Shown here piece by piece: positions 18,501 through 21,500 of a DNA stretch of 64,000 bases. The stretch lies in NCBI GenBank assembly GCA_020137815.1, contig CM035358.1, forward strand, positions 6,758,001 to 6,822,000, given 5' to 3'. Under the pieces are notes generated by a model that was given only the letters and a program-made list of their open reading frames with translations, was not told the DNA's origin and did not search any database. The first letter of the stretch is position 1. Every line of letters starts with the position of its first letter. Position numbers and translations under genes: made by a program. The DNA is from Hormiphora californensis. Its lineage: Eukaryota; Animalia; Ctenophora.

Positions 18501-21500
18501 AAATCTCAACAAAACTAACAAACAAAACTAACTAAATGTTTTCTTAGTTTTTGTTAGTACACTAACAAAACCAACAAAACTAACAAACAAAACCAACAAA
18601 ATGTTTTGTTAATTTTGTTAATTTTGTTGGTTTTGTTAGTACTAACAAAACTAACAAAACTAACAAACAAAACTATCAAAACTAACTTTTGTTGGTTTTG
18701 TTGGTTTTGTTGGTGTTTGTTGGTAGTATACCTATATGCGGTTTGTTAGTACATAATTCGCGTACCAACAAAAACAACAAAAACAACAAAACCAACATGA
18801 GACCCCCCCCCCCCCCCCCCCCGCGGAACACGATCCCGTTCATGAAAAAGCTCTCAAAATTGAAGAACATGACCAAAATGAACATTTTTAGGTCAAAAAT
18901 GAACTTTAGCATCATTTAATGATGCATATCAATTCCTGTCAGTTTCGAGGTGCTGAACACAATCCTGACCATCAAAAGTTGATATCAATAACATGTCAAA
19001 AACTGGTGAAAACCACACATATTTTCCTGTTTTTACCATTTTTCGGTTAAAAACTACACTTTTTAAATCGCGATGCCAACGTAACTGACAAACACTATCC
19101 CGATTCTGTTTTGCTGATGTGATAGAGAATTGTCTATAGTTTCACATTAGCTAGATACTGAATGGCCTAGTCGAAAAAAATGTGAAATAGCACACCCTAC
19201 TAGCCACTAACAACCCCCCCCCCCTCAGGTATCCTCAACCCAGCTGACTACGATTGAGGGTTTAGCCACTAACAACTCCCCCCCCCCCCCCCCCCCCTAG
19301 GTATCCTCAACCCAGCTGACCACGATTGAGGGTCTAGCCACTAAAGGCGAGGAGAAAGCGGTCCAGATCGAGAAACTAAAGGGTGAGGTAGAGGACGTGT
19401 TGGACCAGCGAGACCAGGCCATGCAGGCCATGAGGGATTATCAGTTTCAGTGTGACAGTCTGAGGGGAGAGATATCTAATCAGGAGCTACAAGTTGGGAA
19501 ACTGAAGGAGAAGGTGGGTGTGTGACCTTATATGGTCATAAGTTTGAAACTTTTCAACACTACTTTAAACAAATAAATTTGAGCTGATGATGACGTTAAA
19601 CGTCGAAACCGTTCCGTATTATCTTTCCTGAAATAAATCTCCGAGTCGTCTACAGTCCTAAATAAACACTATTTCATTGTATCAGAACTATGCGACTCAA
19701 AAACAGCCGATTGGTCAACTTATTGATTCACTTACTTGGTCTATAGTCTTCTTTTACCTTATTTGGACAATAAACCAATATCATGCAGGTTGAAGGGTTG
19801 ACGGAGGAGAAGAAGAAACTGGAGGCAGATGTTGAGGTTTTGGATGGAAATTGTCTTGTACTGAAAGATCAGGTATATCTGAGTCCTGGGCTTTACCTAG
19901 GTAAAGCTCGATGGGTTATTTAATCCGGAGACCCCCCCCCCCATCACCTTTTTCAAAAGAGCACTTCCCCCGCCTCACCCCAACCCCTAACCCTGGCCTA
20001 AGATTCTGTGTGTTGGATGTATACAAGATAAATGCCCGCCATTTCTCACAAACACCTGTTTCTTTCTATCATTTGTCTCACTCGAAGGGGAGCTGTGTCG
20101 CTCGATATGCCATTAGGGTGCATGTTTTCCTTTCTCTCACTATCTCCCTCTCTCTCTCTCTCTCTCTCTCTCTCTCTCTCTCTCTCTCTCTCTCTCTCTC
20201 TCTCTCTCTCTCTCTCTCTCTCTCTCTCTCTCTCTCCCCCCTCTTTGTCAGATCCCATTTCAAACATCTGTGCTCTTTCTCCCAGTGTTGTGATCAACAA
20301 ATTCAAATCTCCCTCCTCTGGGTCAGTGTCCTCATCCAATGGTTCACCAGTACACGAGCATCAGCCAATCAGATGGCAGGATCGCCGCGAGCATCAGCCA
20401 ATCAGGATCGAGAAGTGAGGTCACGTGCTCTCTGGCTTGGGAGAGGGTGGCAGTGCTGCGTTAGGTGGCATGCTATGTGTGTGTGTGTTCGGGGGGACGC
20501 CTCCTCCCCAGCCTAGCGTGCAATCAGCACGTAGACGGTTGGAGAAAGAGAGAGAGAGAGAGAGGGAGAGAGGGAGAGAGAGGGAGAGAGAGAGAGAGAG
20601 AGAGAGAGAGAGAGAGAGAGAGAGAGAGAGAGAGAGAGAGAGAGAGAGAGAGAGAGAGAGAGAGAGAGAGAGAGAGAGAGAGAGAGTGAGAGTGAGTGAG
20701 AGAGAGAGAGCAGCTAGATTGAAAATAGAGAGAGTGTATACAACGCGTGTGACAGTTACAAGTTCAGCTTTTTGGTGTGTGTGTGTGTATGTACGTATGT
20801 ATACCTTGTGTTACACTATACCATCTCCAGTTCATTTATCTCATTGCTTGCTATATTTTGTATAAATTGTAAAACTCTGAAGCTCACTACTAACTTGTAT
20901 ACAACTGCTCCTCAGTCTTCGAGGATCCTCCAACCTCCAATGTCTTGCTTTAGATATATGCTGCATGCATGTTTATTGTTTAGCATAAAATATACTATGT
21001 TTCCTGGCATGCTCAGTGTCCCTAGTTGGTTCCTGATCTACCGACACCCCTTACATGACGTGTGCTTGTTTGTTTTACCCTTTTCCGTTGTTCATTGGTA
21101 GTTCTTGGTAGCTCCCTAGTCCCTAGTAATAGTATAGCTCCCGCGTTTATACGAAATTCGAATATTATATTCGGCCCATATATATTATTTTTTGCTAGAA
21201 GTTTATTTTGTAGTTTATTTTGTTGCTACGCTTGCTATCCTTTGTTACCGGGGAGACGGCCTTACATTTGATTGAGTCGCCTGACACTCTGTCCGCGCTA
21301 CGCAGTGTGAACTATCCAAACATTGGATGGTGACTTGTTATCTGTATCCCACTTTTGGCCAACAGGCTGATTGATCCCGGTCCAGATATGAAACCCTATT
21401 TCTGATTCTCTTGATCTTTCTCCCAGCATGAGCAGCTCGTCCCCCTATGAATTATCACCAGTGCACAGATCATCTCCAGTTAAAAGGGCACCCTCCCCCA

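Follow-up and report, generated by a model that had tools for sequence, protein, structure and literature searches.

A ctenophore repeat family joins a spliced-leader exon to a Penelope-type minimal hammerhead and may derive from trans-spliced RNA

Hammerhead ribozymes are already known from the terminal repeats (pseudo-LTRs) of Penelope-like elements (PLEs). In Penelope of Drosophila virilis, an intron ends at the 5' strand of hammerhead helix I, so that the ribozyme exists in spliced and unspliced forms (PMC4209133), and this intron is required for expression (PMC2377424). Reverse transcription has been followed in vitro for Poseidon of Anolis carolinensis: the purified protein starts 111–118 nt into the ORF, just downstream of the hammerhead, and requires RNA beyond the start site (~55–60 nt), while the anole hammerhead cuts only with protein and is dispensable for insertion in vitro (PMC11167929). 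Rotifer pseudo-LTRs of 218 bp contain the start of the ORF together with the tail (PMC3846280), and Penelope-like insertions have been described with a truncated, inverted piece at their 5' end (PMC8557442). Spliced leaders have also been seen in genomic DNA. In ctenophores, 718 genomic leader copies are recorded for Hormiphora californensis and 491 for Mnemiopsis leidyi (PMC8527503), and in dinoflagellates a genomic leader marks retrogenes that passed through mature RNA.

Here we describe a locus at which a leader and a hammerhead are joined. It lies in a 64,000-nt stretch of ctenophore DNA (the window), and we placed on it the contigs of four public DNA runs, representing three samples of organism A (X1, X2 and X5) and one of organism B (X8). 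A second comparison, with the leader cropped to 22 bases, used X1, X8 and two RNA runs (X14 and X17). Both are samples of the data: the first rests on 24 of 370 loose ends and 32 of 3,747 placed pieces, the second on 17 of 160 loose ends. Our favored reading, at a probability of about 0.65, is that the 190-bp insert, in which a splice site links a leader to a minimal hammerhead, arose when the capped 5' part of a Penelope-like element's RNA was copied into cDNA. Coordinates are collected in Table 1.

Table 1. Features of the leader–hammerhead insert, its surroundings and the reference SL RNA gene (window positions, except for contig L004).
Feature	Positions	Strand	Evidence
Phase-0 GT-AG intron of the coiled-coil host gene, with the insert in sense; 85 nt without the insert	19514..19788	+	in-frame exon join
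Left-hand copy, in host intron, of the degenerate repeat that flanks the insert	19525..19540	+	
Complete spliced-leader exon of ctenophore type; neither SL-gene promoter nor GT donor	19541..19583	+	41/43 vs L004 exon
AG common to the leader end and the siblings' 3' splice site; junction 19583/19584	19582..19583	+	
Core of a minimal type I hammerhead (CUGAUGA; bulged U; stem II of 5 bp closed by G10.1-C11.1; GAAA; cleavage triplet)	19584..19618	+	
Cleavage triplet candidates: GUC/GUU (family majority C at 19613) or GUA	19611..19613 or 19616..19618	+	
Helix I 3' arm, predicted only	19614..19625	+	pair count: acceptor form 4 in either register; leader form 1–2 beside core
Two AATAAA motifs (19632, 19661), putative, 65–100 nt upstream of the family 3' end	19632..19666	+	
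3' segment common to subfamilies differing upstream; ATG at 19690; sharp end at 19729/19730 (ATG+40)	19686..19730	+	
Single-copy host intron in which the left flank recurs twice in degenerate form (19731–19745 and 19756–19772)	19731..19772	+	depth, alignments
SL RNA gene (43-nt exon, GTAAG donor) and 5S rRNA gene, 778-bp tandem unit (contig L004)	263-381, 693-735, 1041-1159, 1471-1513		

The 43-mer at the start of the insert is a full leader exon, as the original prediction had it. It agrees at 41 of 43 positions with the exon of a genuine SL RNA gene from a ctenophore, and over 19540–19583 it matches the published Hormiphora leader (PMC8527503) at 41 of 44 positions when compared by eye; by this likeness the host is a ctenophore. 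At 19575 the window copy has A, while T makes up 99.7% of the depth in X1. The reference gene came from a metagenome scan for the leader, which returned five loci: four leader-capped mRNAs and one SL-gene array, L004, in which each tandem unit combines a 5S rRNA gene with a leader exon followed by GTAAG. The upstream flank of L004 recurs in X8 as a loose end before 19541. A 5S-linked arrangement of SL genes does not appear in the accessible text of the Hormiphora genome paper (PMC8527503). Compared with such a gene, which has the exon, a GT donor, an snRNA intron and an upstream promoter, the window holds the exon alone, and CTGATGA follows directly after 19583 in place of a donor, again as originally described. 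No leader–hammerhead copy was present among the five leader loci of the metagenome scan. Two of its four mRNAs start with the leader followed by CTGA, so those four letters alone carry no meaning.

Both exons around the intron that holds the insert are conserved in organism B. Since the leader exon sits in this host intron without SL-gene flanks, we conclude that the insert came through RNA, which upholds that element of the original prediction. No joint skipping the insert, as an empty allele would give, was found in the three organism A runs. The listed contigs of organism B include both exons and the 3' part of the intron, with 65–100 unmatched letters upstream, and none of them bridges the site. 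The insert had been described as bracketed by a degenerate direct repeat. The repeat itself stands: its left copy and the right copy at 19756–19772 agree in 15 of 18 columns, a score reached by 0.3% of 5,000 shuffles and thus above chance. A weaker third copy lies directly at the family end (19731–19745; 12 of 15 columns, 2.2% of shuffles). The repeat is unlikely to represent a simple target duplication, as the better right copy begins 25 nt past the family end. Organism B has that copy too, and none of its listed contigs contains a junction of the element. Moreover, the window copy has three listed differences from the family majority over 190 positions, too few to go with three differences in a duplication of 15–18 nt, and a target duplication is therefore not established.

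The rest of the window is rich in repeats and exons. Many coiled-coil exons extend over 4222–53520 (+) and possibly form one very long gene whose introns host an MFS gene, a LINE and the leader–hammerhead insert. The MFS gene is an intronless ORF for a 497-aa transporter (8617–7124, −), antisense among the coiled-coil exons. An exact 14-nt match to the leader 3' end (8730–8717, −; 0 of 100 shuffles) lies 100 nt upstream of its ATG and carries the minor leader variant of the window copy. The full local score of this alignment is 37 against a background of 27–36, just above it, a modest hint that the ORF is possibly a leader-tagged retrogene. An apparently intact LINE of the CR1/L2 type occupies 13566–17191 (+), with a gag-like ORF1 that has a zinc knuckle, as read from the sequence, and a 1013-aa endonuclease–RT frame. 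Right after it, 17270–18800 contains an 18-bp minisatellite whose mirror-image arms form long inverted repeats, the source of spurious miRNA matches. Just upstream of the host exon, a 59-nt tandem duplication (19214–19272 and 19286–19344; 93%) includes a poly(C) tract, an AG acceptor and an exon start, and its copies possibly serve as alternative acceptors. Farther downstream, CT (20130–20240) and GA (20564–20706) microsatellites form inverted arms flanking a 330-bp spacer, and a 485-bp tandem repeat at 37080–40415 has 6.9 copies with 99% matches.

Organisms A and B both carry the unit 19541–19730 (190 bp) in high copy number, and its 3' end is sharp. Summed depth in X1, which is not a copy number, was 241 and 330 on the two flanks. 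It rose to ~92,000 in the core, to 160,000–270,000 in the 3' part and, with SL genes contributing, to ~1.2 million in the leader. The segment downstream of the leader (19584–19730) is thus multicopy in the runs of both organisms, as expected, while a block reaching 19755 is not: the family stops at 19729/19730, and depth is back at the single-copy level from 19740. Loose ends before 19541/19543 and behind 19729/19730 agreed with one another at only 0.40–0.52, indicating many different flanks. Other copies carry the leader at the same base, with records in X1 (record 2), X2 (records 10 and 11) and X5 (record 17) bridging the leader–core junction with 37–41 leader bases and 5–14 differences; the listed junction records of organism B have just 14–19 leader bases. 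The RNA runs X14 and X17 also contain pieces of the element, which alone show neither transcription nor its start. One junction contig from an RNA library (X14, record 9) has 22 and 28 letters on either side, below the bridging rule, and could be DNA or read-through.

Joints between copies have a distinct form. Five of the seven joints listed are strand inversions, each from one contig per run, and three of these fall at 19540–19547, in the first bases of the leader, as in the inverted 5'-truncated copy that lies beside the 5' end of Penelope insertions. No unit-length tandem joint occurs among the joints listed, and the window holds no second copy of the element. PLEs can form partial tandems (pLTR-ORF-pLTR); the contigs used here break at repeats. 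Retrozymes are small non-coding retroelements with hammerheads of the canonical kind, tandem units and circular RNAs. The ctenophore insert resembles them in being small and hammerhead-bearing, but it is a solo copy with a minimal motif, and no tandem unit was seen here.

At its 3' end the unit has no poly(A) or simple-repeat tail. The AATAAA motifs are there as described, and since the family end lies 65–100 nt beyond them, it is unlikely to be a polyadenylated end and needs an internal start of reverse transcription; we regard 19729/19730 as the likely start site. Loose ends before 19686 and behind 19723/19729/19730 bound the shared 3' segment. The end behind 19723 (X8, X17 and P0003) belongs to a longer variant, whose spacing falls outside the 30–40 bp of the Penelope tail and in which the reading frame of the 19690 ATG meets a stop. 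Poseidon, too, has more than one genomic 3' end, and there each is set by an internal RT start shortly past the hammerhead (PMC11167929). The proteins P0003 and P0004, predicted in public sets, are spurious translations through copies of the 3' segment.

The junction with the core coincides with a splice site in sibling copies. In X8, seven contigs diverge from the window before 19582 with an agreement of 0.87, and their 30-letter consensus, the acceptor sequence being read in organism B only, shows a branch-point-like ACTAAC, a pyrimidine tract and TAT; with the shared AG, this makes a UAG 3' splice site directly before CUGAUGA. Siblings with an intronic AG and a stem-I arm upstream of the core had been foreseen, and these seven contigs are of that kind, without the leader and with the splice site at the same base. 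In X1, the match of one 195-nt record (depth 455) ends at 19582, and its remaining 81 letters differ. A second hammerhead family is joined to the leader at the same base. It has CUGAAGA and an unrelated G-C stem II (GAAACGUU; 30 letters seen) and appears as loose ends behind 19587 in three of the four runs (X1, X2 and X5; two or three contigs each, agreement 0.91–0.97).

The core itself has the features of a minimal type I hammerhead: CUGANGA and GAAA boxes, a bulged base, the G10.1-C11.1 pair and an NUH triplet. In the window these run as CTGATGA (19584–19590), a bulged T, GACGT-TAA-ACGTC (19592–19604), predicted to fold as a 5-bp hairpin, and then GAAAC. When a stem II of at least 4 bp and a stem III base able to pair are required, the window has one core, compared to 0.03 per shuffled window (100 mononucleotide shuffles). 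Three of the four traits of Cervera and de la Peña were examined: the bulged base and G10.1-C11.1 are present, and the palindrome nearly so, the ACCGU dimer helix (15.2–16.2 / loop 3 palindrome), as read from the sequence, having one central C-C mismatch. Among the positions listed for the core region, those with variants at a share of at least 1% are 19589, 19598 and 19599 (both in loop 2) and 19613; the stem II arms and GAAA have none. The family majority has C at 19613, giving GAAACCGUC. Rfam returned no hammerhead or SL match in 17000–22500 or in 19530–19790. Minimum free energy folding produced no hammerhead fold (z-scores −1.4 to +0.5), which is expected of a minimal motif and hence uninformative.

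Replacing the acceptor by the leader is predicted to alter helix I, 4–5 bp long in minimal hammerheads, in both possible registers. With the cut after 19613 (GUC), the acceptor form has a G-C pair, one mismatch and three further pairs, and the leader form one pair beside the core; with the cut after 19618 (GUA), four pairs become two. The splice was thought to swap the entire 5' strand of stem I and to disable self-cleavage. The AG is common to both forms, so the strand is not exchanged as a whole, and it is the outer pairs that are lost. The leader is thus predicted to strip the outer pairs of helix I, and the spliced RNA would cleave less well. Predicted duplex energies are positive for all four helix I duplexes, meaning a weak helix in both forms, and the minimal hammerheads described in the literature show poor cleavage or need protein for it; disabled self-cleavage, and with it a switch by splicing or a competition of splicing with cleavage, is for these reasons a prediction.

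These features resemble metazoan PLE pseudo-LTR hammerheads, and those of D. virilis Penelope in particular, in the core boxes, bulged base, G10.1-C11.1, vestigial helix III and short helix I (PMC4209133). Solo copies predominate and sequence families are many in both cases, and the intron 3' end falls at the 5' strand of helix I here, in the organism B consensus, as it does in D. virilis. What sets the ctenophore site apart from D. virilis Penelope is the leader, probably added by trans-splicing, and the many genomic copies in which the spliced form is preserved. The unit resembles the hammerhead-bearing terminal repeat of an endonuclease-positive (EN+) PLE and is a candidate for that group, which is defined by an ORF with a telomerase-like RT and a GIY-YIG endonuclease. 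The predicted linkage to such an ORF did not materialize in two protein searches with frames through the 3' segment, which are weak tests (0 and 2 matches, both of the latter being spurious ORFs through other copies), nor was a Penelope domain present among the seven window ORFs scanned. The frame from the ATG of the core contains two stops, at which no majority variant is listed.

Searches of other collections gave no further copies. Among viral contigs, the leader pattern and the 3' segment each had 0 loci; an acceptor–core pattern had 5, all in phage coding DNA, and a junction 15-mer had 121, of which none was leader-like or hammerhead-like. Genome contigs gave no match to the 3' segment and three chance matches to the leader pattern, in bacterial MAGs.

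We suggest the following course of events. The element would be transcribed through a splice site located where D. virilis Penelope ends its 5' intron, and the host would trans-splice the leader onto this RNA at the acceptor, as it does for host mRNAs. A Penelope-type RT, primed at a DNA nick, would then start inside the RNA ~190 nt from the cap, in the manner of the anole element in vitro, copy to the first base of the leader and stop, producing a short, dead-end insert that in some cases is joined by a second, inverted piece. On unspliced templates, copies would continue through the acceptor and retain it. Five direct observations lie behind this reading: the identity of the leader, the sibling 3' splice site at the same base, the high copy number, the sharp 3' end and the inverted pieces abutting the leader. 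Counting against it are the failure to find a linked ORF, indels between subfamilies that fit a non-autonomous element, an acceptor consensus from one organism, the short RNA-library junction contig, the doubtful target duplication and the weak helix I in both forms. Of the original prediction of a trans-spliced, ribozyme-bearing retroelement copied into DNA, the leader, multicopy state, acceptor-bearing siblings and passage through RNA have held up; the link to a PLE ORF (in weak searches) and the exchange of the whole 5' strand of stem I have not.

The main rival, which we consider unlikely, is a non-autonomous, SINE-like family in which the leader became fixed as the head after one or a few trans-splicing events and which propagates by read-through or leader-driven transcription with borrowed Penelope enzymes. 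Fixed 5' and 3' ends at high copy number would suit such a family, as would the non-triplet indels of 8–21 nt by which subfamilies differ mid-unit, the stops in both candidate frames and the occurrence of element copies in transcriptome records; in rotifers, moreover, pseudo-LTR sequences suffice for mobilization in trans (PMC3846280). Yet acceptor-bearing siblings persist in both organisms, and two unrelated hammerheads share the junction. In addition, if the RNA requirement of the anole RT applies here, solo copies ending at the start site would not supply the ~55–60 nt needed past it (PMC11167929). The insert is probably the front end of a longer RNA and not a stand-alone small element.

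Processed retrocopies, made when a LINE RT copies leader-capped transcripts that happen to begin at the acceptor, are a considerably less probable source. The window does contain a LINE with endonuclease and RT in its ORF2, and the possible relic leader before the intronless MFS gene suggests that leader-capped mRNAs have been retroposed in this genome, but the copies have no poly(A) or simple-repeat tail and share a 3' end located 65–100 nt beyond the AATAAA motifs, the leader is adjoined by inverted pieces, and the hammerhead is of the type typical of PLEs.

NeSL and CRE/SLACS elements insert into SL RNA genes. Their SL-gene context is absent here, with host intron on both sides and diverse flanks. 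An origin at the DNA level, by insertion into SL RNA genes at the exon end or by an RT switching template onto free SL RNA, is the least probable of all and is disfavored: SL genes are multicopy and tandem (L004) and the junction is exact, but upstream lies host intron and not an SL-gene flank, no GTAAG intron follows, the flanks before 19541/19543 are diverse, and siblings have a complete 3' splice site at the junction, a feature not required by either process.

What would be new, judging from the sequence, is a spliced leader at a Penelope-type hammerhead splice site. A search of the literature outside subscription journals turned up no description of a leader being trans-spliced at the hammerhead of a Penelope element. 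The dinoflagellate leader-bearing retrogenes are alike in that a genomic leader records passage through mature RNA, but they are host protein genes, whereas the ctenophore cargo is the end of a ribozyme-bearing retroelement without poly(A). The leader copies of Hormiphora and Mnemiopsis (PMC8527503) are of the same leader, dispersed by the hundreds in the genome; the accessible text of that paper is silent on the sequence that follows them, and here both 5S-linked SL genes and leader–hammerhead inserts were found.

The insert bears on the open question of whether antisense, unspliced sense or spliced sense RNA is the template of Penelope. Arkhipova et al. argued in 2013 for an antisense template in PLEs that keep their introns and left the question open (PMC3846280), and a 2024 in vitro study showed an internal start on sense RNA, with later steps unvalidated (PMC11167929). 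As the leader is added only to sense RNA, by the spliceosome, tagged genomic copies would be direct evidence that sense RNA serves as a template in vivo in its spliced and capped form. The tags would also mark both ends of the cDNA. A broader proposal, which we hold tentatively and with more doubt than the reading of the insert itself, is that in several families of ctenophore PLEs the 5' intron acceptor has become a trans-splice site at the ribozyme core and that splicing sorts the RNA: the leader-capped form would be translated, be unable to fold the ribozyme and yield only short dead-end cDNAs, and the unspliced form would give rise to complete copies. Of the hundreds of ctenophore leader copies that lack an explanation, a large part would then be such cDNAs, an in vivo record of Penelope RT copying sense, spliced, capped RNA from an internal start. 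Trans-splicing of this kind would account for some of the numerous leader copies that ctenophore genomes contain, with the warning that not all of them are SL genes.
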